From the NCBI GenBank assembly GCA_000091205.1, contig AP006495.2: a DNA stretch of 64,000 nucleotides; one strand, 5' to 3'. Shown in pieces: positions 2,426 through 61,705 of the stretch (its first letter is position 1; every line of letters starts with the position of its first letter). Below the pieces are notes generated by a model. The model did not search any database. It saw only the letters and a program-made list of their open reading frames with translations, and was not told the DNA's origin. Origin of the DNA: Cyanidioschyzon merolae. Lineage: Eukaryota. A program made the position numbers and the translations under genes.

Positions 2426-4444
2426 TCAGCGATTGTCAGGAGCAATAGACGGTATGAGGGTGCTCGCCGCGATCGGCGGTGTTGCTAGCTTGGTTGCCGC
2501 TGCATCACTTGAACGTTCCTCTTTGCGCAACTGGGCTCGCCAGTGCGGCGTGTAGCGTTTGCCTCTGCCTTGCCAGCGTTCGCAGAGCGACAGATGTCGT
2601 AGATTGGCGGCCTCGCCGCCGTACAGCTCAGCGTGGTTACGGAGAGTCAGGTCCCATTCCCAGTCATGTTCGCGCAGATCCAACCCGGTTGCATCCGGAA
2701 GGAAGATGAACGTCGCCAGGAAACCGATGACGGCAGCAGCGGCAGTAAGGATGAATATCGTTCGAATGTCGACGTAGCCGAAGGTGAGCGTCGAGACCAG
2801 TGCGCCTAGTTTGCCGCAAAAGGCGCTGAGGCCGTGCGCACGAGCTCGCACTTCGCTGGGGTAGAGTTCGGCAGCACCGACGTAGGTCACCACGTTCGGT
2901 CCAACCTGCGAGAAGAAGGAAGCCAGAATGTAAAGTGCGATCAATGCATGACGGTTACTTGTTCGGAAGTGCTCATAGGTCCCAGCGAGTATCGCGAAGA
3001 ATACCGCGATCATCGCGAAGCCAAAGAGCTGCAGTCGGCGTCGTCCGCACCACGGCTGGTCGATGATCGCTGCCGCGAGGTAGTAACCAACCAGGGAGAC
3101 GCCATTGTTCAGCACGATCCACGCATTCTGGATAAGGAGATCAGCATTCTCGTTGATACCGTTGAATATGGGACCCGAGTAGAGACGGTTTCCGTACAGA
3201 ATAACATCATTGAGGAACCAGGTAAAACCGGTCCCGATTAAACGTGACCAGTAGTAGCTGAGTAGCTGGCGATATTCCGAGCGGCTGGAGCGGAGCGTCA
3301 ACACGCGACGGCGTCTCGCCTCCCGTCGTTTCGCCGCTCTCTTGAAGACCTCGTCCTCCTGAACAAAGTAAAACCGATGGATCAAAAGTCCGAACAACCA
3401 AAGCGCGCCGACACCGTACACAAAACGCCAAACAAAACTCAGGGCTCGTTGAGAGTACCCCATTTCGTTATTCGATTGGATGCGGCAATTCGGCGCAGTC
3501 TGCTTGGCAACCGCAATGGCAACTAGGGTTAGCAGCGACCCAAAGAGGATGCCAATGCCTTGCATGCTGAAGACCAGCGTGATGGCAGCGCCTCGCAAGC
3601 GTCTCTGGATCTGATGACGCTCATGAGCGGAGGTTTCCTCGATTTTCTGTTTGTGTTCAGCGGCACGAGAGGCGGATATCGGGTACTCGCCTCCAATACC
3701 GATGCCTAAAAGTCCGAAGAATGAGCTGAGGACAATAAAGATGGTACTGATATCCACAGAATATACAAATGTCATGACAAGGGCGCCTGTAACCATAACC
3801 GCTGCCGTGCAGATACTCCCGATACGACGGCCTAGGGCGTCTGCGACCCAGCCAAAGCCCAGCATCCCAAGCATGATACCACCGAAAACGACACAGGAGT
3901 TTGCAATAAGAATACTTCTGGTGCACGTGTCGCGAGAAGGGTACCCTCCGCCGGGGCCGGTGCAGAAGCCCGGAATATTGTCCTGGCAGGGGGCACTTGT
4001 GCACTGCGGAAAGAGACCCGGACAACGCACTTGGTTGGCGCAGTTGACGCTTCCATGCACTGCTCCGAGCCAGCAAGTTGGATAAGCCGCTTCCCAGACC
4101 GTTTTAAGTTGTCCAGTGGTGATGAGGAAGTACGCTGCAATGAACATACCCGCGCCCGCGCTCATAGAGCGTATCATCGACATCAACACGGTCCAGTAGC
4201 GCGCACGAGGCGCTTGCCGCACCTCCGGGACGTCAACGCCATTCGCAGGCGTTTCTACTTCGCTCTGTGTACGCGAGAGTTGAAGCGAGTTTTCGCTTGC
4301 CTCAAACTGGAGCCCAGCGTCCGCGTCGTCGACCGCAGTTGCACGCTCCTTCGGCGCTTTGGCACGAGGCAGCATCGAAACGAAGCGTCCAGATAGACTG
4401 CAATTGATGGCGTCACGCCTCGGACTGGAGGTCTCGGACAACAC
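2426..4444 (-). CDS. Inorganic phosphate:H+ symporter, PHO84/Pht1-type (MFS, PHS family)
   Basis: 672-aa ORF with about 12 predicted TM segments. It carries the PHS-family signature GIGIGGEYPISASRAAEH (GGDYPLSAT-type) and has a Cys-rich insertion between TM1 and TM2. Confidence 0.75.
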   Translation of the reverse strand: MLSETSSPRRDAINCSLSGRFVSMLPRAKAPKERATAVDDADAGLQFEASENSLQLSRTQSEVETPANGVDVPEVRQAPRARYWTVLMSMIRSMSAGAGMFIAAYFLITTGQLKTVWEAAYPTCWLGAVHGSVNCANQVRCPGLFPQCTSAPCQDNIPGFCTGPGGGYPSRDTCTRSILIANSCVVFGGIMLGMLGFGWVADALGRRIGSICTAAVMVTGALVMTFVYSVDISTIFIVLSSFFGLLGIGIGGEYPISASRAAEHKQKIEETSAHERHQIQRRLRGAAITLVFSMQGIGILFGSLLTLVAIAVAKQTAPNCRIQSNNEMGYSQRALSFVWRFVYGVGALWLFGLLIHRFYFVQEDEVFKRAAKRREARRRRVLTLRSSRSEYRQLLSYYWSRLIGTGFTWFLNDVILYGNRLYSGPIFNGINENADLLIQNAWIVLNNGVSLVGYYLAAAIIDQPWCGRRRLQLFGFAMIAVFFAILAGTYEHFRTSNRHALIALYILASFFSQVGPNVVTYVGAAELYPSEVRARAHGLSAFCGKLGALVSTLTFGYVDIRTIFILTAAAAVIGFLATFIFLPDATGLDLREHDWEWDLTLRNHAELYGGEAANLRHLSLCERWQGRGKRYTPHWRAQLRKEERSSDAAATKLATPPIAASTLIPSIAPDNR

Positions 4445-5479
4445 CGCAAAACGTGCCTAGTAGCGTCGTCTACGCGTACTGGACAGGCGCGCCTCTGTGA
4501 CGTGGAGCCATGGCGTGTCCGGCGTCACGTATCGGTCACTTTGCCGCAGCGGTGTCCGAAAGCGCCCGTTTCTTCTTCATGGTCTAACATCGATGAGCGT
4601 ATTCAGGTTATGAACCATCATCCTCGTCGATAAGCGACCATTGTATTGGAGAATTCTAAAGAGACCTCTATCCATTGAAATAAGCATTTGCGTGTTGTAT
4701 TCTGCAGGGCATGAGCTCCCAAAACTGAATAGAAGGTAGGTTGATCCGGTACCTCTGCTGTTATTAAAGCTCTACGTGGACTCAGGCGGGCACCTACGAC
4801 AATCACCAGGAGCCGGTACTCTCGATAGGGACATTGCGGAGCTGTCCTGAGGCCCTTGTCACAGGGCGTCAGGTTTATGGACGGATTCAGAATCCCCTGT
4901 ACACGAGGTTTTCCCATCGGCAACCTGAAAAGTGACTGACGCGCTGCCACAGGTCTCTTCGATACACGCTTTACCACAGACCAGTCGTACCGGAGGAAAT
5001 AGGAGTTCGATGGGTCCAGCGATGCCCAGGGATCCGAGACTGCCCCAGACACTTGCTGCGACGCTACACTCGTGCGACATTCAAACGAAACGCTGATCTG
5101 CTTCCGCTGTTCCTGCATTTCGATCTTTTCCGAAGTTTTTTCAAGCACAGCCCCGAAAATCGAAGTGCAACAATATGCGGTGACGAATTCATGCGTAGTT
5201 TTTGGATTCCCAGCCGTCGTGTCGGATTGGCACATTCCAGGTTGTGTCGCTGGAGGTCGATGCGTCACCGGAATCCAGAGGAGGATTCTCGACGTCGTCG
5301 TACACGGGGTTCGTAAACAAAGCAACATCATAATCCAGTGCGTCCGTGCAAGCCTCCGCTTTTCTCCCTTCCTTACGTTTGGCGAGCGCTAGTCATGATT
5401 CTTCAGGTTCACGATTTGTCTGTGTCAAGGCAACTCACTCGTGGATGCAGCAACTCAATGGCATCCCTCGATGAATATC

Positions 5480-13019: not shown

Positions 13020-14000
13020 AATATTAAGGTCTATTAGATCCCATTTGTAGAGGATGTGATGGGTGCCGCACCCCGCACAGGTCCAGCGGCCGCGTTTTCG
13101 TTGGATACGCTCGCGTGCGCTCGGCCACCGGGGAAGCAACGAAAGCGCGCTCTATGTTCCTTCATGTCAATGGTACTCCATATCCTGGTGCGTCTCATCA
13201 TATGCTTTTTTGCGGTTTATAGAAGATTTGTTCGAAATGCATTCATTTGAAGAAACAGAGAGAATCCAAGGAAAATTATAGACTGAAATTCGGGGATCCA
13301 GAAGGGCCCTCATCACCGCGTTATACCAGCGAACGAAAAATCCCCTAGTCGCCGACCATCGAGCGAAGAGGAACAAGTGACGAAGAAGCGGAAGCAAAAG
13401 GGAGATAGTCGCCAAAACGGTGATCTCTCGACCGGACGATGACCAGACTCTAGAGGCACATAGGGAACGAGAACCAGGAATCCATGCAAAGGTGACTTCA
13501 ACAGGAGCGAAGAAACGCAAAGAGTTCGTGAGCCGCGACGGAAACGCTGCTATCAATAGCAGACGATTTGCGGCGCTGAACGCGAGAGCCGACGAGCTGA
13601 TGCGATCCAAAATTGCGAGGCAGCGTCTCAGGATCCATGTGTGCCTGGATAACACTGACCCCGATACCAGGATGCGGGTGGAAACACACTGGGAGGCGTC
13701 TGCGCGCGGGTACTCATTTTGCCTCCATTGTCATAGAACGTTTATCGTTTTCCTGACCATATATGGGCAATCACGAATGGGCAAACCGCTGTTCTCGAAG
13801 AAGCGACAGGTGAGCAAGACCGCTGCATTAGCCAGTACGGCTATTTGCACGGGTGATCGCCTACAAATCGCCAAACATACCGGAGCGCTTCGCATCGCAG
13901 GCAACGTAAAAGCAATGTGTGGCTTCTGTTTGCGACATTCTTCTATTCTGCTCTATGACGACGTCGATTTCCATCACGAATGAGCTGTCAAGGAGTACGT
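13020..14000 (+). mobile_element. Internally deleted Fanzor-family element (copy A): 5' segment, then Fanzor 3' end, then partial R1
   Basis: The 5' segment 13020-13420 aligns to 17260-17665 (copy B) and to the minus strand of 49200-49500 upstream of the full copy, for example tgcttttttgcggtttatagaagatttgttcgaaatgc versus gttttttcgcactttataagagaggcgttcaaagtgc. The R1 part is at about 13760-13990. Confidence 0.6.
13420..13760 (+). pseudogene. Fanzor/TnpB-like C-terminal fragment carrying the RuvC-III motif (VSRDGNAAINSRR); no in-frame stop
   Basis: Translation DDDQTLEAHRER...KEFVSRDGNAAINSRRFAALNARADEL aligns to copy B, copy C and the full copy. The 3' block gggtactcattttgcctccattgtcatagaacgtttatcgttttcctgaccatata is conserved. 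Confidence 0.6.
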
Positions 14001-15916
14001 GACAAAAACTGCTCTCGAGCTGCTCCTGGTGAGACCCTTTTTTTCCGATTCAAGCCAGTCGAAGGCGACATCTCTGTTGCCAAACACCGTTTTTGAAGCT
14101 CACGGATCCATCGACGAGTCGTCCGCATCCATGACACTGTCATCCGACGAATTGCTCTTCGGAAAGTCATTCTCTTCCTGAACCATTCCTGAGCTGGTGT
14201 CTCTCAGCTATGCTTGTTTGCGGGAGGGAGCGAAAATGCGCGCCTCGGTCCGTGAACATCGCCCTTGGGAGCCGCTAAAGAGATTGATGCTCAGGAATCG
14301 TGGAGATATATGTAGGAGAAACAGAGTTCTGGAACAAGTTCCACTCAGTGCGTCGAAGGAGATGCTTTAAACGCTCCAGACAGCACATGAGACTCTGTTC
14401 GATTCGCTTGCAGTTTCGGTTGTATGGAGGCAAGAGTCAGGCATTCGCCAACTTGTGCGATAACTTGCAAAAAAGCAAATGGTCGATATCTCGAGTTGTC
14501 ATGCTGTAGTCAATGGCACTGGACGTGCAGTAACGCGCGAGCGCTGCACTCCGATTCCTTTGACGACAGCGTACATGGAGTGCAGGAATCGGCGCTTTCA
14601 GATTTCCTTCCATGAGTTCAGGACGACACCATTGCATCACGGGCGCGGGTGCATGTTGAATCAGGTACAGATGGAGAGCGTGAAACGGATCCGAATGCAC
14701 GAGATGGTGCTCACTAAGCTGAGCGGACGCCAGCTGACGGGGCGATCCCAGGTCCAAGGCTTGCTGTGAGGTGACGCTACCAGCAAACCTGCACACAAGC
14801 ACGTTCTACACCGAGACCCAAAACGCCTCGACCATCATCCGGGGATATCTTTTGCGTCCGAAGCATCCAGCGGCCATATGTCGAGCAAGCCTTCGAGGGT
14901 ATCGTTTGGTGATCAGTGTGGGCATTTTGCTGAAACGCGGAAGGCATGCGATGAAGAAAATCAGTAACCAGGAGAGAGGGGAATGGATTCTTTCGGGAGC
15001 GAGGCACTGGTATTGGACGGTCAGCGATCGAGCACGATTGATCACTATATACATCCGCAACGATTTTCCTTGGCAACTAGTGAACATTAGCAATGTTCAA
15101 TTACTCGATATCACCGTGCATATGCTCGACGCGAACGGCCGTACGATCGCCCCAGACTGCACTGTTACCGTACGACGTTCGTGGTAGCGTCTCCCGCGCT
15201 TTCGCAAGCGATCAGATTTCGCGAGACACCTACCGGGAAGCCTGATCCAGCCTCTACATCATGCCTGGATTCTGGACTGGGGATGGAGGAACGAGGACGC
15301 ATCACCATGTGCGGGGCGCTCCATACTCAACAAACTGGAAGCTTTTGCGCATCCGTCGGAATCTGGTCCGATGCACTGATCCAGTACACACTAAAATAAA
15401 GCAGTGACGATGGAGGGCGGTGCCTTTGACACCGTAAAGCTCGCTTGACAGCGACCGCATGGACAAGAGGGTGAAGTGCGCGGTTCCGCGGCGCGCTCGC
15501 CACGGGAAATGGCGCCCCAAGTGAAAAAGCGGTCAGAACACGTGCTCATACAAGGTCGAATGCGTTGGTTGCTCCCTCGGTTACCGACCAAAACCGCTTA
15601 CCACGATGGCACTTTGCATATCGATGATGTTTATCCAACGTTAGTGACAATGACGCAGTGCAGCGAATCATCTAGAGAATATATCTCTGGTTCCAGTGCA
15701 GACACGCCATCATGAATGCATTCAGTGATGCCCGTCACAATGCGCTTCGCTGGGAACACGCTATCCCCATTCGATGAAGCGCGGTACGGCAGGCCACGTA
15801 GACCTTGAAAACCCTTGCATTTGCTTGGCGCTGCAACACGAATCCGTTCAGGCATCGGAAAAGTGAACCGCTGCAATTCGGCATAGCATGCAGACCTTGA
15901 ACGCTGTCACGAGACG

Positions 15917-17026: not shown

Positions 17027-17589
17027 TGTACGTTTTCGCTTCAACTAGGCAAAGAAGCGCTTTTTCTTGTCCCCAGCGCCACCTGCTCTGCGCTCGGGAG
17101 CTTCTGGAGACTATGAATGAAAAGCACGCACAGCACGCTCCTCGGCTCGCAGCGGTTTACCTGAATATTTGGCGTAGCTGTAGTGTGAGCACGTTTTACA
17201 CGCAAAAAAACCTCAGGAAAAGCGAACGTGATAAGTTGTCACGTTACATGGAAATCCGTGTTTCCGTTGATAGACTGCTTTGGGTAGCTTTATGTCATGG
17301 GGATCTGTTTGTGATGCGGCGACGACGACGACGACGACGCGCGCGGCATCTCGTACGGATACACGCTTGCAGTATTTCATCTCAATTGGGTTCCATCATC
17401 ACGCACGTGTCGTCAAATGCTATTTCGCGGTTTATTGCAGAGACATTCAAAGCGCGTTCCGTGGAAGGAATAAAACATCCCAGGGGAATGCACGGACCAA
17501 GTCGGGGACCCCGAAGGATCGTCCTCGCCAGGTGCCAGAAAAAACGAAAAATATCCTCTTGTCATCGAGTTTAGAGCGAAGAAGAGCAA

Positions 17590-17982
17590 GTGACAAAGAA
17601 GAAAAAGATGATGATTCGTGTTGGTAGGCGATTCAACGTGTACGCACGACGGAACGATGACGAGACTATGGTGGCACAGAGGGAACGAGTGCTAGGAATC
17701 CTTACAAGGATGACTTCAAGCATCCTCAATGCACGCAGTGAGCTCGTGAACCGCGACTTGAACACTGCTATCAATACCAGACGATTTTCGGTGCTGAACA
17801 CGAAACCCCAAGAGCTGACGCGAGCCAACTTCGTGGAGCAGCCTCTGATACTCAAAATGTGTAAGGAGAAGCTGGAGCCGATAGCAGGCGGCCGGTCAAA
17901 AAATGGTTGGGTGACGTCTGCGGGTGGGTATTCATATACCCTACATGATCGTGCGAAAACTTTTGTTTCAGTGACCACATAG
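17590..17982 (+). CDS. In-frame internally deleted Fanzor/TnpB-like ORF (130 aa): about 35 N-terminal residues fused to the C-terminal RuvC-III segment
   Basis: MMIRVGRRFNV resembles MVAKAFVLRQF, the N-terminus of the 49166 ORF upstream of the full copy. ERVLGIL...VNRDLNTAINTRRFSVLNTKPQELTRANFVEQPL aligns to aa about 570-630 of the full copy. The stop TAG is at 17980-17982. Confidence 0.5.
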   Translation: MTKKKKMMIRVGRRFNVYARRNDDETMVAQRERVLGILTRMTSSILNARSELVNRDLNTAINTRRFSVLNTKPQELTRANFVEQPLILKMCKEKLEPIAGGRSKNGWVTSAGGYSYTLHDRAKTFVSVTT

Positions 17983-18028
17983 TGCATGTGAATAAATCTG
18001 TTCTGATGTATAGCTCTTCGGGATCCGC

Positions 18029-18952
18029 TTGTCGCGCTTGCTCGAGCGAGATTTCGCGCTTGCGAACGACACCAATGCTACCTGCCTGGCCGTGCTCGGT
18101 TTCATGAGCTCAACGAAAGACCAGAACAGCGTGGGTGAGTTAGAAGACTTGGCCTTATGGGCAGTGGAAGCTCTTACGGTGGCGCTTGTCCCTCCTGACG
18201 ACACGCTATGCTGTCTCGATTCGCGAGCGTTCGGGCTCCTCGGTACGCCTGGAGAAACTGGTTTTCAACACGCGAGCATCATCGAGCAGTTCCGAGACGA
18301 CCTCTCCCGAAATAATAGACCGCACTTGGTCACGAGTGATGCCGGCGTTGAAAACCTCGCTGAACGCAGAGTCGATGGCTGTGTCACTTTCGGCGCCTTA
18401 GACAGCGCTTTCGCCGACGAGGCCTCCTGCGAGTCCGTGCTACGAACAGTCGCCCGCCTGCTGTGCTCAGGTGGAAAGTTCTTTGGTCTCTGTGTGGACA
18501 GCGCAAGCCTATGGACACCACTGCGGAAAGCTTACGAGGCACGACAGACTGGGCGGGCTGCTCCTGCACCCAGCGTCGATATTCGGCTACCGTACCGGGC
18601 AAGCGACGCGAGCTTCTGTATCGCCATGGATCCGGATGCGAATGCACTCTTTCGCTCCGCATACGGACACGTGTTTACGCTGGGCGTGGGCACAAGAACA
18701 AAAGCCTCGTCTCGAAAGTGCTATCTTGTGAACTTTGGAGAACTGATTCGAGTCGCATCACGCGTAGGTCTCGAGTACCGCGAGGCCTTGAACTTGAAGG
18801 ATTTTTGGGAAGAATTTCATCGCCCATTACAGTATTGTGAGGAGATGCGTAGCTTTTACCGACGCTTCCAAGGTCAAAAATTTCGACCAAGTCCAGCGGC
18901 GCTCGAGGGCGCTGCGTATTTCTCCGTATTTGTCTTTGAAGCAGTGTCCTGA
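18029..18952 (+). CDS. Element-borne class I methyltransferase-like protein resembling the C-terminal two-thirds of mRNA cap guanine-N7 methyltransferase (RNMT/Pox_MCEL family); the SAM-binding motif I was not recognised
   Basis: 307-aa intact ORF. The block [39 protein letters not shown] resembles the RNMT block [71 protein letters not shown] resembles [32 protein letters not shown], and [11 protein letters not shown] resembles SIYLVFAFEK. Degenerate paralogous copies of this ORF follow every Fanzor 3' fragment (copies A, C and E). Confidence 0.45.
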   Translation: [307 protein letters not shown]

Positions 18953-23146: not shown

Positions 23147-24849
23147 CGTGTCTGAAAGGTGCCTATAAAAAACGTTCTCGCGCGCGAGCAAGGCGACGAA
23201 CGCTCAGCGCAAGGTCGTCGTCGACAAGTGCGTGCAGGCGTACGCGCGCCGGCTCGCGCTTCGATCGCTGGCGGGTTCCAGAGGGCGCGTATACCGCTGG
23301 TGCCTGCCCGGCGCCTTGGCTGGCTGGATCGCCCCAGGTCGACTGCCTCCCAGCCGCTCTTGCTATCTTGTCATTGGTGCAGGGTCGATGACGCGTACGA
23401 GACCCGCCGGATTACGCTGGCGTAGCCGATGATGCGTACACGAACTGCGCCAAGAGCCGTTTGATGCTCGTGCGTACCACGACGCCTCGAGGGGTGTCGC
23501 TTTGAAAAAGGCACGCTCAATAGGTCAAGCGGGTGTCTGGATGCCGAACTAAACACGTCAAGCTCCGCGGTGGATCCGGTGGCACGCTCAGTGCAAGGCG
23601 CGGTTGCCACACGCAGGCCAGGATACCAAGCAACTGTGAACAGTTCGCGCGCTTCCCAGCTTGAGATATTTTTTGGAACACTTTCTTCGATGTGCAGTCT
23701 CGATATCCAAAGTGGAACAGTAGGGGCTAACGAATGCCTCAATTGTTTTAGGAGCCTCGACCGTCCTTTCGAAGTTGCCTTGCTGCTAGAGCTTGTTGCG
23801 TCACCGAAATGAAAATGATTCGCAATGCCTCCGAACAAGGATTCGTAAACGAACCGATAGCTTTCTTTCATTCATCCGGACACGCCTCCACTATTCTCCT
23901 TTTCTGACGTGTGAGATGGTAAAATCATGCATTGTTCAAATGTTCGATCTTTATTTTTCAACTCAACTCGATCCTATCCACACTGACTGCAGTCGCATGC
24001 TTTCTCGCACTGTATAGCAGCAGATCAAGATCAAGATGCCATGTACCATACAGACGGTAGAAGAATTGCCTATAGGATCCATTCTTTACTGGACAGTGCA
24101 AGGGGATTGCATTTCTATCTCAGGTCAGTCATGTAACAGTACTCAAATTGTTGAAAGACTCGGCAAGAAAGAATAAGATGCGGTCAACGCCAAAACCGAT
24201 ACGCTTACGGACCGCTCGCGGTCCATGGTAGGAAAACGACCCGTTGATTACCTTACGGAAAGCAAAAATCAACGATAGTGTACACCACCACTGGCGTCTC
24301 TGCTTCCCAATAGCTTGTTCGTGTGGTCCTGAGAACACCTGGAAACACTTGTAAAACAGTCCCAGGTCATGCACGGCCATTCGCCACAGAATTCGCAACT
24401 GCAGAAGAGTTCCCGGAGCTTTGCGATCGGTATGAAGCAAATGGACAACGCTTTATTCTTTCAGTCGGTTCGATCTGCTTCGGACGAACCAGTCGGAGCT
24501 TGTATGGGTATTCGCATCGAGGCAGATCGTTGTATGTACGATCGAACTGGAAGCGAACGATGGCGCCATCTGTTCTAGTTTTAATGGGTTCATTGAGCGA
24601 CCTCTGTCTTGCTCGTGGAGCAGAAACATCCAACAGCACCAACCGCCTTGTCGAATAATAGAAGACTCTTCGCTGACGTACGGCGACTTTATTGGTCAAC
24701 GTGGCATTTGACAATCCGCCTTGCGTTCGAGCTTTTGGGAATTCTATCGGAATAGAGCTGATTTTCATTCCTCCGTACGCTCTTTAATTCAACCGCAACG
24801 AAAGAGTGCTTTCTACTGTGAAACGTAATCATCGGTCCACCGGGCGAGT

Positions 24850-26300
24850 CGCCGAAGCATCCAGCACACTGTGACACACCCGGGCACATTTCGTGGTCCT
24901 TCCGCAGGTCCTTCACCTTTGGGGAAGGTCCTCACCTAAACGCATAAAATAGTGCATTCATTTTCAGGAAATAAAAAATCGATGGTATGAGTTTGGATGC
25001 ACACTTCAGAACAAAGAGATGGAGAAGAGCCAGCGGAGCGCTTCGGTGATAGAAAAGCACCGAGAGCTGACACAGAACCAAATGACACAGAGTGAACGAG
25101 TTCTAGGAATCCTTGCATTGGTGGGTTCACGCAGCGACGATAAACGCATGGAGTTCGTGATACGAGACCTCAACGCTGCCATCAATATCCGACGATATGC
25201 AGAGCTGAAGACGAAACCCGCAGAGCTGTAACGATCCAACTTTATGAGGCGACCTATTAGGATCGAAGTTTGCAACGAGAAACTGAAACCGACAACAAGC
25301 AGCTGATCGAAAACGACTGGGTGGCGTCTGCACGTGGATACGCATCTACCCTACATAATCGTGCGACAATTTTTGTTCCACTGACCACATACCATGTCTG
25401 AATAACTTTTTGGCGTCCTCCTGTGACGACTCGTCGGCAAGCTCACGCAGAAATTTCACTGAACTTGTCAAGTCAAATACTCGATTCCATTTGAAAGACA
25501 ATGCCTTCTCACTTGGTTGCTATCGATGGAACCACGGTCGACTTCAGTTCGACAAATCCCGGGAGATACGCACGCAGTGGCTGTCTTCTCTTGTATTTGC
25601 GTGGAAAAGGTCTGGGGCGCGGACTCTAGTCACAGCGGTGATCTCTTCGGGTGCAGCGTGCGTCACGACTTCGCATGGGCGGAGCGTAGACGAATCGAAT
25701 TTTCTCGACTTGATCTCCAGCATGGATTACCATACCGGCGCTCGTTTCATCATGGACAAGCTTGCGTTCCACAAATCCTCTTTCGAATGGGACAGCGTGT
25801 GCTTGGTCGTCCTACGGATATTGAGTTCGCCACGGGCATCGCCCTAAACAAGTCCATGATCGTTGGGTCCGGCAACTGGCTGGCGCGGAAACCTTCCAGG
25901 ACGTCGCGGGGAGCCTTCTGGATCCGTCACGGGCCTGTGCCGGGCGATGCAGCGAGCGGTCACGCACCGCAGGGCGCCAATCTGAGGACGACAAATGGAG
26001 AATACACTCGAATGCCTGACTACCGACGAGTGGCACTGCTACGAAAGGCGCATCCGGGCTCTATACAAACAAGCGAAAAACGGCTGGCGAGGCGTCGATC
26101 GCAGCATTCGCCTGTGCATGGAAAACATGAAAAACATTCGAAAACAGCGTGATCAGGAGTTTAGCGCTGCCACGAACATCTTGCGACTGCTGAAAAAAGA
26201 GCTGGAAGCACAGGAGAGACTGGGGCATTTAAAACCTGAAAAAAGATACCCTCAAAGGGAACAGTTGGAAAAAGTCTGCAAAGGCTGGCATTGATAAAAC
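24850..26300 (+). mobile_element. Internally deleted Fanzor-family element (copy C): 5' segment, then frameshifted Fanzor 3' fragment, then degenerate R1/methyltransferase-like region
   Basis: 24985-25391 aligns at nucleotide and protein level to aa about 536-650 of the full copy. 25393-25810 aligns to 1140-1560 and 18000-18300. Confidence 0.55.
24985..25391 (+). pseudogene. Fanzor/TnpB-like C-terminal fragment (RuvC-III: IRDLNAAINIRR), frameshifted
   Basis: GCTLQNKEMEKSQRSASVIEKHRELTQNQMTQSERVLGIL...MEFVIRDLNAAINIRRYAELKTKPAEL aligns to the full copy's [40 protein letters not shown]...[16 protein letters not shown]. The downstream frame is shifted (RSNFMRRPIRIEVCNEKLKP). Confidence 0.6.
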
Positions 26301-28329: not shown

Positions 28330-29709
28330 GGCAATGTGAAACAGGGAATAGTCTCTGAAAATGAACGTGATTGCTCTTGAGCTTGATCTCGGCACTGGCC
28401 GATGCGGCCGCGATGCAGCAGGTGCTTGCATTTGCTCGGTTTTCGAGAACTTCGGGTCTCGCCAGCTGCATTGATCAAGAACAGCGACACCAAAGCATGG
28501 CAAGCCAGGTACATATGCTGACCACGAAAGCGTTCGGACAGCCGGCAGCGAGGATCCCGAGTTCAAGAATTGTCGCTCTGGACCAAGGCGCTTGAGAGAG
28601 GTCCGCGCCTCGAGGCTGAACGTGTGCTGGACCTGCGTTGCGTCAAAATGGAACACTAAAATGCTCGCTCTCTTCCTGTCTTTCGAGTTTTCCCAAAATT
28701 TCTCACGTATTCTGCATCGATATTCGGAATGGAGCAACTGCGGCTCATGGAATCAAATAAAGCATTAGGATTCTCGGTAGTGGGTTCAGGATGGATTCTT
28801 CGACTTTTTGCCGCTTGAGTTCGTGATGTCATCGGGATCGAGATACTTCGCGAAGCGAACGAACGTGGTGTCGTAAAATAATCGATATCGTCATCCGATT
28901 CAGGAGTATACGTCTACGCACGTGTCCGCTCCGTACGAGTTGCGTACCCGAATCAAACAGTCTTGAAGTTTTCGCTTTTCTAGATGCAAAGCGAGTCGTG
29001 TGCACAGCGATTCGCGTCGCTGGATTGACGAGGAGGAAAGATGAGCGTCGTCCCCTGATGACTTGTTAACAAGAACATGTCGAAAGTTCGCAGAACTCGT
29101 CACGTCAAATAATTGATTCCAGTCGGAAGGCAAAGCTTCTTCACTCTGTGCGGTAATCGACGGAACGGCACGCTACAGCAGCGCGACACGTCTCCGGGGA
29201 TAAGCTCCCAGACGCTCTCATCAGCTCTGTTTGCATGGGATAGGTCTAGGACGCTGACTTGAGTCATAGAAGCAATCGCTTCTTTCGAAGTGTTCGTCAA
29301 CGCTTTGCACGAAGGAAGCCTTGACGAAATGATACTTCTCGAGTACAGCGCCAACATGGATAATCCGTTCAGTCGGTTAGCTCGTCATGAATAACATCGC
29401 GTTCGACAAATTCTCTATTGACTGGAACAGTGCGCCTGCAGCCGACGTAGTACTCGCCGAGGGAAACGCTCAGACAAAGTCCGTGATCGTCGGCTGCGGC
29501 ACCGGATGCGGAATGCGAAAAGGACATCGCAGGGAGACTTGCATATCCACCAGGGGTAAGTATGGAGCGATGAAGGAAGCGGTGACGCGCCATCAGGCGG
29601 CATTCGGAGAATGAGGTGTGATGCACATATGAGAATCCACGACCAAAGCCAAGTGCCATCGTTGCGAGAAGCGAACCAGGGAAATATACAAAGAAGATGA
29701 AAATGGCAA

Positions 29710-38855: not shown

Positions 38856-41131
38856 GCGCATAAGCGGTAGGTCGATGCCGGGCACATCCGGCACGCTGCA
38901 TCGCGGGTTGCATGCCCTTCGCATACCGCTCCAGGCTTGATCAGGGGCGATAACAGACGCTCCAGCGATGTATCCTTTGCGTGCTGCCTGATACGGAAAA
39001 CGACATCTTCAAGCAGCGCATGACGCTCAGACATGTTCTTGATTGAAGCTTTGACGAGAAGCGAAAACCTTTGGAACGATCCGCTTTCAATCCAAGGCCG
39101 TAAGGATATCCGATCTCGTACGATCCATACAGGCAAGGATCTGAATGGAGCGCATTTTCCGTTCGTTTATTTTCAACGGATCGCTCGAGGCGCTCCCGGG
39201 TCACGCAATGCGATGGTGTGTGCTGGCGCTGCTGCTGGGCGTTCGGCGTTGCTGTGCGTTTACGAGTTATCTGCGCCCCCACGGTGTGCATGTGATGAAC
39301 GCCCGAGACGAATGAGGCCGCCCACGCTGCTGCCGGGCTGCGTCAGCAAGCATCCCCAGTTTGGTACGATCAAGTGCCGGGACATCCATGCAGTCCTGCA
39401 TGTTACGCGTGCGGCCGTCTTATCGCCTGAGCTGGCGCACGTAAGCGCACTCGCAACGCAAGTAGCTCTGGGTAGCGTTCTGAGGCCTAGACGCAGCGTG
39501 CTCGAGATGTTGCACATCCGAATGCCGTTCGGGAGATGCGATACCGGCGCTGTGGACGGAACCCCGGTCCGCTATGGAGCATGCGGCAGCGACGGACATC
39601 GATACCTGCACTGGATAAAATATCCAGTATGTTCTCTGCATGCTTACCTGACGTGCATTGACTTCATCTCAGATACTTGTCTGCGCTGTGCATTGTCTGC
39701 TGTAAGCTACGACCTGGGTTTGTTCAACGCAGCGCAGGCATGCACGAACATACATGATGGTATTTGCATGTCGATTTTGCAAGGTTGCTTGACCTGCCAG
39801 CTCTGAACTCAACCGTAGCGCACTCCACGCTGCGAGATGCGTTTATGACCGCACCCTGTCCTTTGATCTGCCAAACGTTCCCAGACACGAAAAGCAACCC
39901 AGGCATGCTTCATCTCTCATGACTGTACGTCGATAGATGATGCACATACAATACTCGTATACACGGTGTCCGCTCAGGTGGAAGACGCTGCGGGTCTCTG
40001 CTCGTGGCGTTGCCGCAGCGGTCGGAGAGTGTCGATCGCGCGTTCCTGCATCCCCGCCGGCGCTACTTGATACACGATGTACACTGACAGAATGCGCTGA
40101 TATCAAGAGCGCAATCGGGGGTGCCTGTTCAGTGTGTAAAGGTTGTATAAAAAACGCGATGTGCGCTGTCGACTGGAGAGAACGTTGCGTGCGATTGTAA
40201 CTACAGCGCAGCATTCTCGACATTCACTACGTTCAAAAAAAGACAGAAAAAAAGCACTTGCTTTTTGCAACGGTCCCGAAAGAACACAAACGAACCAGCA
40301 ACCAGCGACTCGATACCAATTTCGTTCCAGCTTCACGGTGAACATTGAACGGGGGCAAACGTCTCCGTATTTTCGAACGTTGATCCGCATGATGGAAGGT
40401 CGCACGACCCCGACGTGTCCGGCGGGCTCGTGCCTCACGCCTCCCTCAGTTACCGGGTGATGTGGCGACACCCGAGCGACTCATCTGCAACGATGTTTTT
40501 GTTTTTAGATGAGAAAGCGGTAGGCTGCATGCTAGGCGTTGCCCTGGTTGCAGTACGCTCCTGGCAGATCGCTTCGCGCTACCGCAAGCAGTGCGTCTCT
40601 CTCCGCAGCTTGCTGGCTCCCAGTATCATAAAGAGTCCCGATTCCGTATTGAATAAAAGACACTTCGAGCCAACGTCCTCAGTCGTATGCCAATCCCGTT
40701 CTATGCTCGTGCTGCACCCGCACCAGCTGTATAGGGGTTATTCAGGGGACAGCAAGGCAGGTACTCGCTGCGCGATAGAACGCACGAAACGACCAGTACA
40801 ACCTATATCACATATAGGTTATGGAACTTGAGCGTATGGCACAGCATGATGGACAATTCCATGAACCCTACTATCCATCCCGTGTCTGGGTTCCGTGGTC
40901 AATGGAAACATTTCGTCAAACATGAGAGAAAAAGCCGGTAGGCCTCAGCGTGCCACCAAGTCCCGTTTTTGAAATCCCTCATCGGGCGATCGCGCCAAAT
41001 CGATCGTACGTTGCGCGTTGGTGCGCTCTTGCGCTGTGCTGCGGCACGCTGCAGTACGCACGCTCTGGTGAACTGCTCTGTCGTGCTCGATATCGCAACG
41101 ATTGTGTTGACGGCACAACAAAGGTCTCTGA

Positions 41132-45049: not shown

Positions 45050-46864
45050 TTACAGGGGAATATTTCCATGTTTTTTCGGGGGCCATGGCTCCCGTAACGC
45101 CGCTGTCTCTTTGCTCGCTAGGAGGCTTAGCCCGTGTATGAGCCATCGACGCGTCAGTCTTGGTCGCACGACAGCATCGACGTAGCCACGCTGGAGTGCA
45201 ACCGAAACCGAGGATTCCTCGCTCGCTTCAGTGTCACCCGAAGTTTCGAGCGCATCCGTCGACGCAACTCGCCTGCGAAGGATCTGACTCGCTGCAGCCC
45301 TACCCATGACAGCGATATGGGCACAGGGCCAAGTTGCGTTCAGGTCGCCACGCAGGTGCTTGCTTGCCATGACACAGTACGCGCCACCGTATGCCTTACG
45401 CAAAATAATGGTCAGTTTCGGCACGGTTGCCTCCGTGTACGCATACAGCAACTTGGAGCCGTGTCGGATGATGCCGCCATGCTCTTGCTGCGTTCCGGGA
45501 AGGAAGCCTGGTACGTCAACCAGCGTCACGATCGGTATGCCGAATGCATCTGCAAAGCGCACAAACCGTGCTGCTTTGACGGCAGCGTCGGAATCGATTG
45601 CACCTGCTATGCACAGCGGTTGGTTGGCAATCAATGCCACACTGCGACCGTTCAGTCGAGCAAATGCAGTTAGCATGTTTGGAGCGAAATCGGTTTGAAT
45701 TTCTAGAAATTCTTCATCATCGACGAGGCGCATCAGAACATCCCGCATGTCGTATGGCGTATGCGCATCCGAGGGTACCAGTCGATCGAGCACGGGTTCT
45801 TCGCGGTCGCTGGGATCCTCGGTGACAACAACTTGGGGAGCGGGAACACGCGCATTCTGCGGCAGGTACGACAGCAGCTCACGGGCGAGTTGTATCACGG
45901 CAATATCGTCGTCGGCGTCTAAATGGGCAACGCCCGAGATACGACAGTGAACTGCGGCACCGCCAAGCGCCTCATCAGTTGTTTGTTCGCCTAGGGCAGC
46001 GTTCGTTACGCTGGGCCCCGTCACGAACATTCGTGCATGTCGTCTGCTCATGAGCACAAAGTCCGTGAGTGCTGGTGAGTACACTGCACCACCTGCACAC
46101 GGCCCGAGAATCAGGGAAAGCTGCGGGATGTATCCCGAAGCCAACACATTGCGTTTGAAGACCTCTGCGTAGCCTGCGAGCGAGCGCACCCCTTCCTGGA
46201 TGCGCGCTCCTCCGGAATCACAGAGAGCAACAACTGGCGCGCCGACCTCGATGGCCTTGTCGATGACCTTGCAGATCTTTGCGGCGTTGGCTTCGGAAAG
46301 AGAGCCACCAGCAACGGTGAAGTCCTGGCTGTAAACGAACACAGGTCGACCGTGAATCCGTCCAAAGCCCGACACAACGCCGTCGCCAGGAGTGCGATGT
46401 TTTCCAAGCGGATCCGAAGACGATGCATGGAGGGACTCTCTTGAACTGACCAGTCGATCAAGCTCTTGAAAAGAGCCACGATCCAGTAAAAGGTACAACC
46501 GCTCCCGAGCGGTTAGCTTTCCCTGGGCGTGCTGGCGGCGCACTCGAGCCCGGCCGCCTCCGCAAAGAGCGAACACTTCTTCCTGGTACGTCCGCTCGCC
46601 AACACCCAAGACAGACGCAAGTCCGCTCGCTACTATCTGGTCCGTGGCACCGGCTTCCGTCGAGGCAGAGTCCAGGTCCCTGTTCGTGGTTACGGAGCCG
46701 TTTACTGAACCACCCGTTCCAACGTCGTGCGGGTGTTCAGCGAAAGCGCCCCCGCCACCTGTACTGGACCTGGAGCACGCAGTGGACAGCCAAACGCGGA
46801 ACCGCTGTCGTACGGTTCTCCATGTGACGCTCTGCAGTCGCTGTGGCCAGGAGGTGTCTCGCAT
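45050..46864 (-). CDS. PCCB: Propionyl-CoA carboxylase beta chain / carboxyltransferase (PCCB-type) with an Arg-rich N-terminal presequence
   Basis: ALCGGGRARVRRQHAQGKLTARERLYLLLDRGSFQELD matches the PCCB N-region, and carboxyltransferase domains follow to the stop at 45050. The proposed start is M at 46864 (MRDTSWPQRLQSVTWRTVRQRFRVW). The listed ORF continues upstream in frame into the Fanzor sequence. Confidence 0.8.
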   Translation of the reverse strand: MRDTSWPQRLQSVTWRTVRQRFRVWLSTACSRSSTGGGGAFAEHPHDVGTGGSVNGSVTTNRDLDSASTEAGATDQIVASGLASVLGVGERTYQEEVFALCGGGRARVRRQHAQGKLTARERLYLLLDRGSFQELDRLVSSRESLHASSSDPLGKHRTPGDGVVSGFGRIHGRPVFVYSQDFTVAGGSLSEANAAKICKVIDKAIEVGAPVVALCDSGGARIQEGVRSLAGYAEVFKRNVLASGYIPQLSLILGPCAGGAVYSPALTDFVLMSRRHARMFVTGPSVTNAALGEQTTDEALGGAAVHCRISGVAHLDADDDIAVIQLARELLSYLPQNARVPAPQVVVTEDPSDREEPVLDRLVPSDAHTPYDMRDVLMRLVDDEEFLEIQTDFAPNMLTAFARLNGRSVALIANQPLCIAGAIDSDAAVKAARFVRFADAFGIPIVTLVDVPGFLPGTQQEHGGIIRHGSKLLYAYTEATVPKLTIILRKAYGGAYCVMASKHLRGDLNATWPCAHIAVMGRAAASQILRRRVASTDALETSGDTEASEESSVSVALQRGYVDAVVRPRLTRRWLIHGLSLLASKETAALREPWPPKKHGNIPL

Positions 46865-46962
46865 GGCGCACACCGCTGAACGCCGTTCTAAAGTAGAACG
46901 TCGTCGGCGGTGTACAGTAGTAGCGACCGGTGCGCCTTGGACAACAAGTCGCCTACTGACGT

Positions 46963-48913
46963 GCAGACGCTTCCTAGGCTTTTTCGACCGGCCGCCTACT
47001 ACTGCTTCCAATTGTGTCTCATATAGTAAAACCTTAAGAGGTTGTCCAACAAAATTCTCTCGTGTCATCTCTGGAGGTCTGTTCTCCAACACCGCACATC
47101 TCCTTATATTGATGGCGGTAATAAAATCTCGGTTCACAAAATCCATCCGTTTCGTGCCGTTGGGAGTTGTACTTACTAATGCAAGCAGTCCACGAACTTT
47201 CGCTCTCCTTTCCATTTGCTCTTCCGTCAGCTGTCTATACTTTGCTATATCCTCAGGGCTCCTCTGGCACTTTTCCATCTCGACTCTCTGAAGTGTTAAC
47301 CCCTGTTCATGGTGTGTATACGATGTTCGAAACTCATCTACAGGTATCGTAACGAAACGCCTTGCACACTCCTTGTACATTCTTGTCGTTGGAGCTGGTG
47401 TAGTGCCTTTCTTGGGCACCCATCGTCCTGCTCCGTCCGCTACGACGAGCCTCTGACTTTCCTCCTCCTTCAGGGCGCTCAACTCATTCAAAAAATTCGC
47501 GAACGCCCGCTGCCTCCCACCGTATAGATTCATTCGCAGACGAGCCCACCGGGGCTTGGTATACTCCTCCCATAGCGCATCCCAGTGCGCCATGCGAACT
47601 TCCATGAATTTCCGGACAGCTTCAAAGTCCGCTCCTCGGCTCGTCACCTTACTCAAAGCTTCCAGGTGCTCTTTCATTCCTGGATTCCAAGTCTCGATTT
47701 TCTTCCTCGCATTCATGATTCCCGATTCTCGATAGTATATTGCTCTCGAGAACTTCAAAAGACGCATGTCTTTCTGACGCATGCCGCCGTCAGTGCCATC
47801 TTCCAAACGCTTGGGTACTGCGATGGTGATGATATTTGTGTTTCCGAGGTCCGCGCCAACGACAAAGTCGTTATCATGCACTTTCTGCGCGGCAGGATCC
47901 CCCTCCTTCTCATCTTTATGCATCGCCGCGCCAACGACAAAGTCGTTAGCTTGCACCTCCTGCACCACAGGATCCGCTTCCTTCCCATCTTCATCCTTCA
48001 TCACGTCAACGACAAGGTCGTTATCCTGCACCTCCTGCATCACAGCATCCGCCTCCTTCTTTTCTTCATGCTTCGTCACGGGCGCAGCCGAGGGCGGAAC
48101 TGGACGATCTTTCTTCAACCGCCGACAGAGTACACACGTGGCTACTCCATCGGTTTCGATCAACCCAGTGAATACCTTCTTCGTGCTCACTTTGAGACGT
48201 TTGAAATCGAAGCTGCTCATCCAGTACGTCTCCCGGTTTCCGCCGGTGAAGTCCTCCCTGCTTACATCGAACTCCGGACAGATATCCCTCATGATGCCGT
48301 AAAGGACGCCGGAGTCGATAGTCACAAAATGTGACTTGATCTTGCACATTGGAACCACGTTGAATCGCTTCCGCATTAGGACAGCCTTCCGTCTCTCCCA
48401 CTCTTCCTTTGTCTCTTCACTCAGCTTCATCTCCGCTTTGCGTTCGAGCTCTCGGTCCAGAAACACAAAATAGCGCAGGACGAGGCGATCGTATCTTTCC
48501 CTATCTTTTTTCAGCTCTGATATCTTGTCTGTTGGATTCGCCAGGCCCAGTATCGCACGATGCTCTTTAATAACCGCACGGATTACGGAATCCTCATTCA
48601 TGCTCTCGTTTGAAACCTTCTTCTCGACAAATTTGATCTCATCTTCATGCTTGCGATCTTTCATGATGCCATTGATAATCGCCCATTTTCCATTACGAGA
48701 GATGCCCGGGTATAGCGCAAACACTGCGCATATCATGAAACGTTCCAGGTTCATTGTAAAATGGTTCTTCACATTCGTGAGGTACTTCTTCGCCCCGAAG
48801 GTGTAAATATCCCAGTCAACCTTGTTTAGAGTACCCTCGAATCTGTAAAAGGGATGTTTTTCGTGGAGGGCGTGCACTCGCTCATCACTCGTCGAACATT
48901 TTTCCTGTGCCAT
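46963..48913 (-). CDS. Fanzor1-like (eukaryotic TnpB/OMEGA-type) RuvC nuclease, main ORF (aa about 1-650 of the 1287-aa read-through ORF)
   Basis: Has RuvC-I ([19 protein letters not shown], compare GIDLG) and a TnpB-like segment [16 protein letters not shown] (compare VDPAYTSQTCSVCG, Cys ligands lost). RuvC-III is [18 protein letters not shown] (compare DRDVNAAINI). At the canonical RuvC-II position the sequence reads LVVADG (E replaced by A). Confidence 0.7.
47857..48055 (-). repeat. Three in-frame tandem repeats of about 69 bp inside the Fanzor ORF, immediately N-terminal to RuvC-I
   Basis: [53 protein letters not shown] and [18 protein letters not shown]. Also visible as repeats on the plus strand at 47781-48302. 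Confidence 0.7.
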
Positions 48914-49166
48914 GCATGAAGTGGCGGTTGAATGTCTTGTTGAAAAATTCTCCCGGAACCTCGACTGTTTTGATGCCCATCACGTTGTCGTACATCTCCC
49001 ACGCCAAATGCATTATTCCTGAAGAAGCCTTTGTTATACTCATGGAGTAGCACGCGCCACGTTTTCTGATGGCCTCCCATGACTTTTGCTTGGAGGGATC
49101 CTTGAATTGGCGTAGAACAAATGCTTTCGCCACCATTTCTTCGTACTGTTGTCTTTCAAGTTGCAT
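48885..49166 (-). CDS. Probable N-terminal segment (about 90 aa) of the Fanzor protein, separated from the main ORF by a 1-nt frame shift in an A5 run
   Basis: The ORF MQLERQQYEEMVAKAFVLRQF... ends [11 protein letters not shown] overlapping the main ATG (ggaaaaatg). Removing one A gives a continuous ...[14 protein letters not shown]... Its N-terminus is conserved in the mini-ORF of copy B. Confidence 0.45.
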   Translation of the reverse strand: MQLERQQYEEMVAKAFVLRQFKDPSKQKSWEAIRKRGACYSMSITKASSGIMHLAWEMYDNVMGIKTVEVPGEFFNKTFNRHFMHGTGKMFDE

Positions 49167-50149
49167 TTAGCGTCTGATTTCCAGTCTAAGGTCCCCCGTC
49201 TTTTCATGATTCTCTTGGCTTGGCGCTGTTTTTCTGGAAGCCGGCGACACTGGGCCTCCAGCATCGTCGACTTGCTTTGACATAACTTTTTTATTTTGTT
49301 CTGAAAAAGAACGCACTTTGAACGCCTCTCTTATAAAGTGCGAAAAAACACTCGAATACACTCACTTGAGCGTTGAAACCCCATTGAAATGAAAGACTGT
49401 CATATTGTGCGACTTCAGCACAGATCCAACCAGCACGTGAGACCCACACGTCAACGTATGGTCAGCATAGCGTTTCCATTCAACGCCGTGATACGCATTG
49501 TGTCGTGCATGCCAGATACGGAGCTGCGCGTATCGACCGCGCCATATAGAACAAACAACAGAAACTCACGACTACATACCAGTAAGATAACGATTTTTAC
49601 CCCCCCTCTGCAATGGACGTTAAAAGGGGGAGATGTTTCTATCATGTCGAATGTTTACCTCCTCGGCGGAAGGCCCCGCGAGCCCGACGAGTTTACCAGG
49701 CTCGTGCTTCATGCTCCCCCAGTGGCAGTTGCTATAATGAGACCCGAGCAACTCGTCCGCAATGTAATTTGTTCTTGGACTTGGATCGAGTAGCCTGCGT
49801 CTGGGCGTCGCGTTTGTCGTACTGGATTCCTCATATATCGCTTCACGCTTTTTGCAGGCAATTCCTTTGTCTCCACAAATTGCAGTCTCCCAGCATGATA
49901 ATGAATCCCGAACTCATGTCATTCGTAGCGTTCCTCGATCCGTCGCCCCCCCGTCGTATGGGAAATCCGTTCTTTCTCCATGATGCATCTGCACCAACGG
50001 TATAGCTGTTATTGCTGGTGCTCACGGCAGATAGTCGGCACACGATACAACGCACGAAACGACCAGTATATCCGAGAGGATATATAAGTAATGGAACTTG
50101 AAAGTAGGTTGCAGCAGCATTATGGACGCTTTCCCGAAAACTAATCCCC

Positions 50150-50278
50150 ATCCATCCATGCATCTATCTATCTACCTATCTATCTGTCTATCCATGCATG
50201 CATCTACCTATCTATCTGTCTATCCATGCATGCATCTATCTATCTATCTATCTATCTATCTGTCTATCTGTCCATCTG
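50150..50278. repeat. Compound (TCTA)n-based microsatellite with about 3 higher-order units of 32-36 bp (ccatgcatgcatctacctatctatctgtctat)
   Basis: Read directly at 50150-50278. A GC-only run (gccgccgccaccgccgcctccgccgccggcg) follows at about 50400-50440. Confidence 0.85.
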
Positions 50279-50539
50279 GAATCCATGGTCAATGTAAACG
50301 TCTTGGAATTGAAAAAAACAACACCAGCGGCGTCGTCGCTGCACGAATTCGCTGCCGTGACGCCGTCCAGCTGGCGACCTTTGTTTGCCGATCTTCTGCG
50401 GCCGCCGCCACCGCCGCCTCCGCCGCCGGCGACGACGAAGTGACGCGCCGCGGACCCGCAGCCGCCCGCGAGCCTCGTCGCCCGCACATTGCCGTGTCGT
50501 TTCGGCAAGTAGTGCGATATTCTTATTGTGCAGTAACGG

Positions 50540-60735: not shown

Positions 60736-61705
60736 ACCAAACCGGTACTAGCGACTCTAAGCGTTGCAGCGGGTCGCAGGCCGGGTGCCGTCGTTCACTC
60801 AAAAAACGAAACAACCCGAGTTGCCTCGCCTGCAGAAAGCGTCCAACGCAGTCCGTGGCGAGTTTCTGCTCCCCGTTAGCGCGAGAAGACTGCGCGGAGC
60901 ACGCCCTGCGGCATACAGCGCCTCGTGGCGTCGTCGATGCCGCGCCAAACACACACGCATGCGCCGGCGCGTCTGTGATGATCCTGCAGCGCCAGTTTCG
61001 ATTCTCGTGTGCTGGCATCCGATTCTTGCTGTTTTTCTGGAATGAAACAGCGTCGACGTTGCGCATGGATGCCAGATGGCTGAATGCGTATTGAAATAAA
61101 TGAAACCGCTCATTATTATTCACGTTACTTCCGAGTTCCATGACCAGTTCTCGGATGTAACTGTCGTTATATACTTTTTATCGTGTGCCGAGTTCGTGCT
61201 TGGAACACCTGCCGTAGCGCCTAAACCGCTGGTGCCGATGCATCATAACGTGTGACCTGTTTTGGCACGCAAATGAGAGCGTCAGCTCGAGATGTCCTTC
61301 ATCCGACACATGGGAACAGCGACAGCATGCTGGGGAACGAAGCAGCGAGCTCATTGGGGTATTGTGAGATCGATGGATCGAGTCCGAGAGCTGCGCACGT
61401 CTCGCTGCTGCTGTTGGTAACCGTGAGAGAGGTCACGAGTGCGCTGGTGCGGGAACCCTGGGTGTGTATGTTTCGCTCTTTACACGGATACCTCTGTGCA
61501 TGAAACCGGAACAAGGCCCAAGGGTGCGTTAGAGCTATCGATCATCACTGGGAAGTTCGCTACAATGCGCTCTCGATGCACATATCGGAATGAAATGGAA
61601 CTGGTTGACCAAACTAGGTCAGGTATGCACACGAAGGTCTGGGCGTGTGCCCGTGATGATCAAGACCAGGTTTAGCGTGCTTTTCGGCTCTCTTGACTCC
61701 GGATT

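Follow-up and report, generated by a model that had tools for sequence, protein, structure and literature searches.

A short non-autonomous derivative of the CMe-1 Fanzor1 transposon in Cyanidioschyzon merolae and its probably relict open reading frame

A 130-codon open reading frame (ORF) is present at positions 17590-17982 (plus strand) of a 64,000-nucleotide stretch of Cyanidioschyzon merolae 10D DNA (the window; GenBank assembly GCA_000091205.1, contig AP006495.2). The transposon copy in which it lies, copy B, is very probably a decaying member of a ~611-bp non-autonomous family derived from a CMe-1 Fanzor1 element, and its ORF a neutrally drifting relic that is fortuitously open. As judged by alignment, copy B is the leader and about the first three codons of the Fanzor gene joined in frame to about the last 100 codons of that gene. 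The open frame of copy B is not more than chance, and its predicted product, which contains the RuvC-III motif only, cannot be a nuclease. An earlier note on this DNA had described the 130-codon ORF as an in-frame fusion ending in the RuvC-III segment of the nuclease. This description held, and the C-terminal part of the ORF matched the RuvC-III segment of the minus-strand Fanzor at ~47224-46982 (tblastn, 45% identity, E 1.6e-16). The features are listed below with the evidence that places them.

17376..17981 (+): copy B, a ~611-bp non-autonomous deletion derivative of the CMe-1 Fanzor1 transposon; end-to-end homology to copy A and nine further loci
17376..17673 (+): 5' module of copy B, Fanzor leader and first ~3 codons, with the vestigial start ACT at 17665-17667; matches to the parent and L005
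17590..17982 (+): reported ORF with GTG start; ATG versions from 17608 (124 aa) and 17668 (104 aa)
17674..17981 (+): 3' module of copy B, RuvC-III coding remnant and transposon right end; matches to the parent and L004
17746..17775 (+): RuvC-III motif VNRDLNTAIN; alignment to the parent family and profile to SpuFz1
17898..17905 (+): +1 indel at an A-run, after which the final ~26 codons leave the ancestral Fanzor frame; copy alignments and frame comparison
17926..17969 (+): two subterminal stem-loops, with the ancestral stop TGA at 17972-17974; per-copy folds, TGA from L050
13154..13763 (+): copy A, same family, ends and junction as copy B; alignments and HMM
14324..14766 (+): decayed Fanzor fragment of the RuvC-II region, homologous to residues 587-706 of P0001; tblastn
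24007..25391 (+): copy C, ~1.4-kb non-autonomous family; ~1-kb 5' module and Fanzor 3' part at 24987-25391
46890..50160 (-): near-full-length CMe-1A-type Fanzor1 element (the parent), ~3.27 kb; HMM and sequence alignments

Two proteins encoded in the window, glutamate dehydrogenase (BAM80987) and Ca-ATPase (BAM80984), match C. merolae 10D proteins exactly. CMe-1A is the one Fanzor1 family described in the C. merolae genome (Bao & Jurka 2013, PMC3627910). It comprises about 150 copies, each of which shares ~80% identity with a consensus of ~3 kb; terminal inverted repeats (TIRs) are absent, and target-site duplications (TSDs) were left undetermined. A 635-bp element, TE-N2_CMe, corresponds to the 5' end of CMe-1A (PMC3627910). 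The 5' ~600 bp of the full-length element also stand alone, at 40280-40880 (-) and 61077-61343 (+), in keeping with TE-N2_CMe (PMC3627910).

The parent has 53 relatives with 52-90% identity, nearly all of them from JGI hot-spring metagenomes. A profile of 12 family members matches SpuFz1 (8gkh) with an E value of 1.4e-8, and RuvC-I, II and III appear in order in the profile/SpuFz1 alignment (IDP..., DE(F/Y)(R/K)TS and NRD). This match to a solved Fanzor1 with all three RuvC motifs identifies the parent family as Fanzor1. A phmmer search of the PDB with the parent alone gave no matches, and no significant Fanzor match was obtained for the parent in Pfam. The interval between RuvC-II and RuvC-III contains one Cys in the parent and two Cys and an HH in P0001, and the canonical CxxC...CxxC (the C4 zinc finger motif of Bao & Jurka 2013) is absent from this interval in both. 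Three tandem 75-nt (25-aa) repeats are located at 47851-48075, within the Fanzor coding region and upstream of RuvC-I; the number of 25-aa repeats varies among family members and is higher in P0001. A degenerate (ATCT/ATCC/ATGC)n simple repeat at 50142-50285 marks the left edge of the full-length element. The parent adjoins the 5' side of a carboxyl-transferase (propionyl-CoA carboxylase beta-like) gene.

Copy B was mapped with nhmmer on a nucleotide HMM made from three full-length copies. It occupies positions 824-1147 (E 2e-22) and 3035-3277 (E 1e-23), and the family consensus occupies positions 822-1108 (E 9e-41) and 3026-3277 (E 2e-42). In direct alignments, 17370-17543 of copy B corresponds to parent 49399-49229, upstream of the Fanzor ATG, and 17733-17930 corresponds to parent 47150-46954. 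The segment 17375-17674 is contiguous with the 5' region of the full-length copy L005 (9143-9421); this alignment includes VYARRNDDETMVA against LYETRDYDGTVV, which covers the start of the Fanzor frame with its N-terminal extension. The 3' module matches 12063-12346 of L004. The right boundary, ...CTGACCACATA, which ends at 17981 in copy B, is common to 20 or more copies. A (GAC)n microsatellite is located just upstream of copy B, at 17320-17345, and is length-polymorphic (6-nt indels) among environmental haplotypes.

These alignments bear on the claim that about 35 aa of the Fanzor N-terminus had been fused to the RuvC-III segment. About three true Fanzor codons are retained, and the remaining residues of that stretch are leader-derived. 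The resemblance of MVAKAFVLRQF to MMIRVGRRFNV, on which the claim had drawn, is spurious, the leader-derived residues corresponding to sequence upstream of the Fanzor ATG.

The junction lies at 17673|17674 in copy B and at about 13455|13456 in copy A, ~10-15 nt from the positions 17665 and 13440 that had been proposed. The consensus sequence at the junction is ...GAC GAG ACT GTA GTG | GCA CAG AGG GCA.... The 5' parent reads ATG GTT GTG AAA at this point and the 3' parent, as seen in C-type copies, reads CAA ATG GCA CAG; the crossover therefore shows a 2-nt TG microhomology. Splicing was considered as the origin of the junction and rejected on inspection of the deleted segment, which has no GT...AG boundaries.

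Copies A, B and C were found within the window by repeat search, blastn and tblastn. Copies A and B are 67% identical over 614 nt, end to end, and copy A occupies positions 823-1066 and 3039-3278 of the full-length HMM. JGI metagenome contigs were scanned with the C-terminal segment, and the best 80 loci, ranked by tblastn, of at least 491 confirmed matches were analysed. HMM mapping and clustering revealed at least 11 distinct loci, including A and B, that have the ~611-bp architecture with the same ends and junction: HMM ~820-1108 joined to ~3026-3278, followed by a ~55-nt terminal stretch. The flanks of these 11 loci are unrelated. The left end of the family (HMM ~820) is well defined across nine copies; it is internal to full-length CMe-1A, which starts near HMM ~60, and this was counted against the preferred explanation. 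No TIRs or TSDs were definable in the alignments of the element ends, the copies being too diverged for base-exact ends.

Two further architectures share part of this structure. In the X+mini type (L072, L043 and L083), the 611-bp junction is present and module X, ~1 kb long, stands in place of the leader's first ~85 nt. In the C type, with at least five members besides copy C, module X is joined to HMM position 2923 and the element continues through the right end; compared with the start at 3026 in the A/B type, ~100 nt more of the gene are kept. The idea of an in-frame internal-deletion derivative kept in several copies was thus borne out by copy A, by at least nine more loci and by the X+mini variant. 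The junction had also been assigned to copy C, where it is absent: copy C joins an unrelated ~1-kb 5' module at HMM 2923, and of A and C, only copy A has the junction of copy B. The 611-bp, X+mini and C-type families and the long copies L050 and L065 have one common 3' terminus, which is unlike that of the three full-length copies in the HMM. Module X (24007-24986 in copy C; also in L036, L049, L064, L075, L082 and L072) makes up the 5' portion of C-type and X+mini elements and has no homology to the CMe-1A 5' region except for a ~30-nt motif (GTGCGTTCATTT..AAATAAAA). The decayed fragment at 14324-14766 is located 560 bp downstream of copy A; together with A, B and C it makes four Fanzor pieces in 12 kb, all in the same orientation.

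The first codon of the 17590-17982 ORF is GTG and its earliest ATG is at 17608. Since the host is a eukaryote, the 124-aa form from 17608 has the first usable start; a second ATG-initiated version, of 104 aa, begins at 17668. The ATGs at 17608, 17611 and 17668 all arose by substitutions specific to the B lineage. ACT is found at 17665-17667, where the canonical Fanzor ATG stood, and the family consensus also has ACT there. Copy A has no in-frame ATG upstream of the RuvC-III motif.

The end of the ORF is equally particular to copy B. In the A-run at 17898-17905, copy B has one base more than all other copies, which places its last ~26 residues (GWVTSAGGYSYTLHDRAKTFVSVTT) outside the ancestral frame. 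Because the right end of the element is at 17981, the stop codon TAG (17980-17982) straddles the boundary between element and flank and takes its G from flanking DNA. The ancestral frame of L050, a long copy with the same type of 3' end, ends at a TGA within the terminal motif ACTGA; this TGA corresponds to 17972-17974 of copy B, 8 nt upstream of the TAG and in a different frame. The statement that copy B shares its stop with the parent gene does not hold. A frameshift near 48900 interrupts the parent Fanzor frame, which has no stop at its Fanzor end; it reads on into the carboxyl-transferase gene (Pfam PF01039, E 4e-165), giving an ORF of 1287 codons at 45050-48913 (-), and in relatives with the 3' end type of copy B the TGA lies upstream in the other frame. 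Copy A carries an independent +1 indel ~30 nt upstream of that in copy B, and copy C contains two stop codons in the ancestral frame.

The motif VNRDLNTAIN is the sole catalytic motif in the mini-ORF product. It aligns with FVNRDF(N/I)(A/T)AIN of the parent and its homologues, and the family profile places it on NRDMLSTCNM of SpuFz1 (PDB 8gkh). The catalytic Asp of RuvC-I (the D in ...DPGNTN...) and the catalytic Glu of RuvC-II (in the DEFRTS motif) are both absent from the product, their segments having been deleted; the 3' module begins ~45 codons downstream of DEFRTS. Pfam searches with the mini-ORF, copies A and C and the parent Fanzor gave no meaningful matches. The 130-aa and 124-aa forms had no exact match in a protein collection that holds the C. 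merolae 10D proteins, so the ORF is evidently not annotated. The mini-ORF is called as a gene in ~20 metagenome variants; these calls are automatic and belong to one orthologous locus with ~98% identity. A search with the mini-ORF among 5.8 billion proteins returned this orthologous cluster only, and no paralogous mini-protein was found.

Selection on the mini-ORF was measured among paralogous copies and within a population. The earlier note had named dN/dS across the copies as a check, and the Nei-Gojobori ratios for A, B and C (2.19 for A-B, 1.17 for B-C and 1.23 for A-C) gave no sign of purifying selection. The corresponding segment in full-length copies has dN/dS of 0.15-0.26. In an ungapped 195-nt block, pN/pS was 0.8-1.35 in all six frames and the differences were spread evenly across codon positions. 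For the 11 mini copies against their consensus, a sample chosen by protein similarity and hence biased towards conservation, pooled pN/pS was 0.84 (0.99 for copy B), and differences at the three codon positions numbered 141/154/166 of 854. Stop-to-stop window, in-frame ATGs and stops all vary among the 11 copies; the NRD motif is kept in seven of them, and the RD dipeptide is lost in four.

The population sample consisted of 31 haplotypes of the orthologous B locus from environmental Cyanidioschyzon. Five nonsynonymous and no synonymous polymorphisms were found in the mini-ORF, compared with none and six, respectively, in the adjacent upstream 375-aa gene (Fisher p ~0.002). Amino-acid replacements (F->S, R->H and Y->C) and a loss of the stop codon also occur within the mini-ORF protein cluster. 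Polymorphisms are slightly sparser in the ORF (5 in 375 nt) than in non-coding DNA nearby, a point against the relic reading; the difference is not significant and might stem from constraint on the nucleotide sequence or the RNA. A 307-codon ORF downstream of copy B (18029-18952, plus strand), which some gene callers begin 25 codons later (282 aa), has five nonsynonymous and two synonymous polymorphisms and appears relaxed relative to the upstream gene.

The openness of the frame was compared with neutral expectation. In neutral simulations at 10-15% divergence, 104 codons stay open in ~22-35% of runs, and in ~25% at the divergence of copy B. In this region of 55% GC, non-genic frames often contain ORFs of 120-190 codons, and a 138-codon antisense ORF covers copy B itself. 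One count speaks against the relic reading: seven of the 11 metagenome-derived copies are stop-free over 78 codons of the ancestral frame, versus ~0.3 expected. We would attribute this excess to the ranking of loci by tblastn score; the stop-free fraction was rejected as a test for selection, the 80 tblastn-ranked loci being a biased sample. Antisense ORFs are found over the Fanzor 3' segment at 17571-17987 (-), 13167-13655 (-), 25006-25275 (-) and 46644-47291 (+). With pN/pS of ~1.1 in that frame, selection was likewise rejected for the antisense ORF, which spans 138 codons in B and is open in A and C as well. The antisense ORFs in A, B, C and the parent look like a legacy of codon composition rather than genes.

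In the preferred explanation, a single ancestral deletion would have removed nearly all of the nuclease gene, from the fourth codon onwards but sparing roughly the last 100 codons, with its 3' limit at about residue 690 of a protein of ~750-790 aa. The breakpoint would have fallen in frame by coincidence, leaving a leader of ~290 bp joined to the last ~310 bp. The derivative would then have been copied to many unrelated sites, presumably through the transposition functions of other elements. We know of no transposase for CMe-1. The 3' module, with the right end, the two stem-loops and, by analogy, a probable guide-RNA scaffold, would be the part needed in cis, and the reading frame across the junction would be a by-product that drifts neutrally. 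The ORF of copy B looks intact because ATGs specific to B have arisen, no stop has yet appeared and a +1 frameshift leads onto a stop made by the flank.

The three non-autonomous families have the 3' 300-400 bp in common, with two terminal stem-loops. In copy B, stem-loop 1 (GGGTAT/ATACCC) is located at 17926-17941 and stem-loop 2 (GAAAAC/GTTTC) at 17955-17969. The last ~70 nt can form both, and most copies fold there. Over 22 distinct ends, 77% of the cells are paired, versus 43-52% when the partners are slid. Covariation in the stem-loops is weak and does not exceed that of shuffled controls, of which 46 in 500 score at least as high. RNAalifold gave no consensus structure for the terminal 80 nt or the whole 3' half, and no match was found in Rfam. 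The guide RNAs of TnpB and Fanzor are encoded where the nuclease gene ends and the transposon terminates, overlapping both (PMC10530073). By analogy with them, the retained 3' module is probably a cis-acting transposon end and guide-RNA scaffold. The suggestion that the copies are what is left of a 3' region required for the guide RNA or transposon end fits the data best, its guide-RNA part being argued by analogy.

The elements could be guide-RNA-only satellites, in which the leader or promoter drives the 3' scaffold and the Fanzor of full-length copies protects or re-homes the mini-element. We consider this unlikely. The following points favour it: at least three non-autonomous families (611-bp, X+mini and 1.4-kb C) share only the 3' 300-400 bp module; the native ORF crosses the two terminal stem-loops and ends within 8 nt of the right end, a layout that matches that of TnpB/Fanzor guide RNAs at the 3' end of the gene and transposon (PMC10530073); and the deletion leaves the leader adjacent to the 3' module. 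However, conserved RNA structure was not detected over the 3' half, stem-loop covariation does not exceed that of shuffles and Rfam has no match. The copies are decayed, with ~30% pairwise divergence and no sign of nucleotide-level constraint, and no mapped guide RNA is known for this Fanzor. A requirement of the transposase would explain the retention of the terminal module equally well. If true, the satellite families would be a eukaryotic counterpart of the ends-only derivatives of IS200/IS605.

A functional small protein under selection, acting as a trans-dependent partner, a dominant-negative regulator of Fanzor or a guide-RNA-binding fragment, is highly improbable. The frame is open in B and over the homologous stretch of A, the in-frame junction is common to many copies, the NRD motif survives in most of the 11 (7/11), and the ~20 metagenome variants are called as genes. 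Those calls, however, are automatic and come from a single orthologous locus at ~98% identity. The proposal of an intact or retained mini-Fanzor protein also fails on purifying selection, which is seen neither among paralogues (dN/dS ~1 or above, substitutions even over codon positions) nor in polymorphism (5 nonsynonymous to 0 synonymous, with stop-loss variants). Neither starts nor stops are conserved, the Fanzor ATG was absent from the founder, the tail of copy B is frameshifted and ends on flanking DNA, and the catalytic residues of RuvC-I and RuvC-II are missing. A reading in which A, B and C were not transposed but arose by local segmental duplication, or by separate random truncation of full-length insertions, can be given almost no probability. 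The three lie within 12 kb in the same orientation, with a fourth Fanzor fragment between them, but A and B are homologous exactly up to the element ends and no further, and their flanks are unrelated. The same ends and junction recur at nine or more other loci with unrelated flanks, and copy C belongs to a separate family with at least five other members of the 1.4-kb structure.

The preferred reading, a decaying deletion derivative, can be placed beside known systems. With CMe-1A and TE-N2_CMe (PMC3627910) it shares the genome; the window contains both a ~3.27-kb CMe-1A-type copy and its 5' ~600 bp alone. The mini-element is homologous to the leader and 3' end of the CMe-1A family, its copies are ~65-80% identical, and TIRs or TSDs are not evident in either. 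The ~611-bp derivative and the 1.4-kb C-type family have no mention in PMC3627910, however, and the 3' terminus of the mini and C-type elements (two stem-loops, ...CTGACCACATA) differs from that of the three aligned full-length copies.

The 611-bp family resembles MITE-like elements and the PATEs of IS200/IS605 in being short and effectively non-coding, in having many copies with identical ends and one internal breakpoint, and in being presumably mobilised in trans. Unlike them, it has no definable TIRs or TSDs, and its left end lies inside the longest full-length copies. As in the omega RNA and fRNA guide modules of TnpB and Fanzor (PMC10530073), the ORF end, right end and stem-loops are retained in the position of the guide RNA, whereas neither structure conservation nor covariation is significant here. 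In Chlamydomonas, CRe-1, CRe-2 and CRe-3 are Helitron2-associated Fanzor1 elements that are 5'-truncated and 3'-over-represented (PMC3627910). In the C. merolae derivatives, too, 3' ends outnumber the other parts of the element, and subterminal hairpins are present. They differ in that no Helitron termini or insertion-site signature was identified and in that an internal deletion or an exchange of modules defines them, where the CRe elements are simply truncated at the 5' end.

For annotation, the mini-ORF and its metagenome orthologues ('hypothetical protein') would be transposon debris and not a gene. C. merolae contains several amplified non-autonomous families that share only the Fanzor gene 3' end and the right end, and this shared ~300-400 bp would mark out the cis-acting module of a Fanzor1 element. 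As naturally occurring deletion variants, the families could help to locate the guide RNA and the transposon end in a Fanzor1 family.

Two other dispersed repeats were observed in the window. An unrelated family with ~60% identity has copies at 23606-23969, 5063-5436, 28652-28979, 53293-53676 and 62603-62916, one of which adjoins the left side of the C-type element. Another repeat, with 61-67% identity, is found at 25413-25600, 29045-29234, 1163-1353 and 62397-62516, and begins directly after the right end of copy C.
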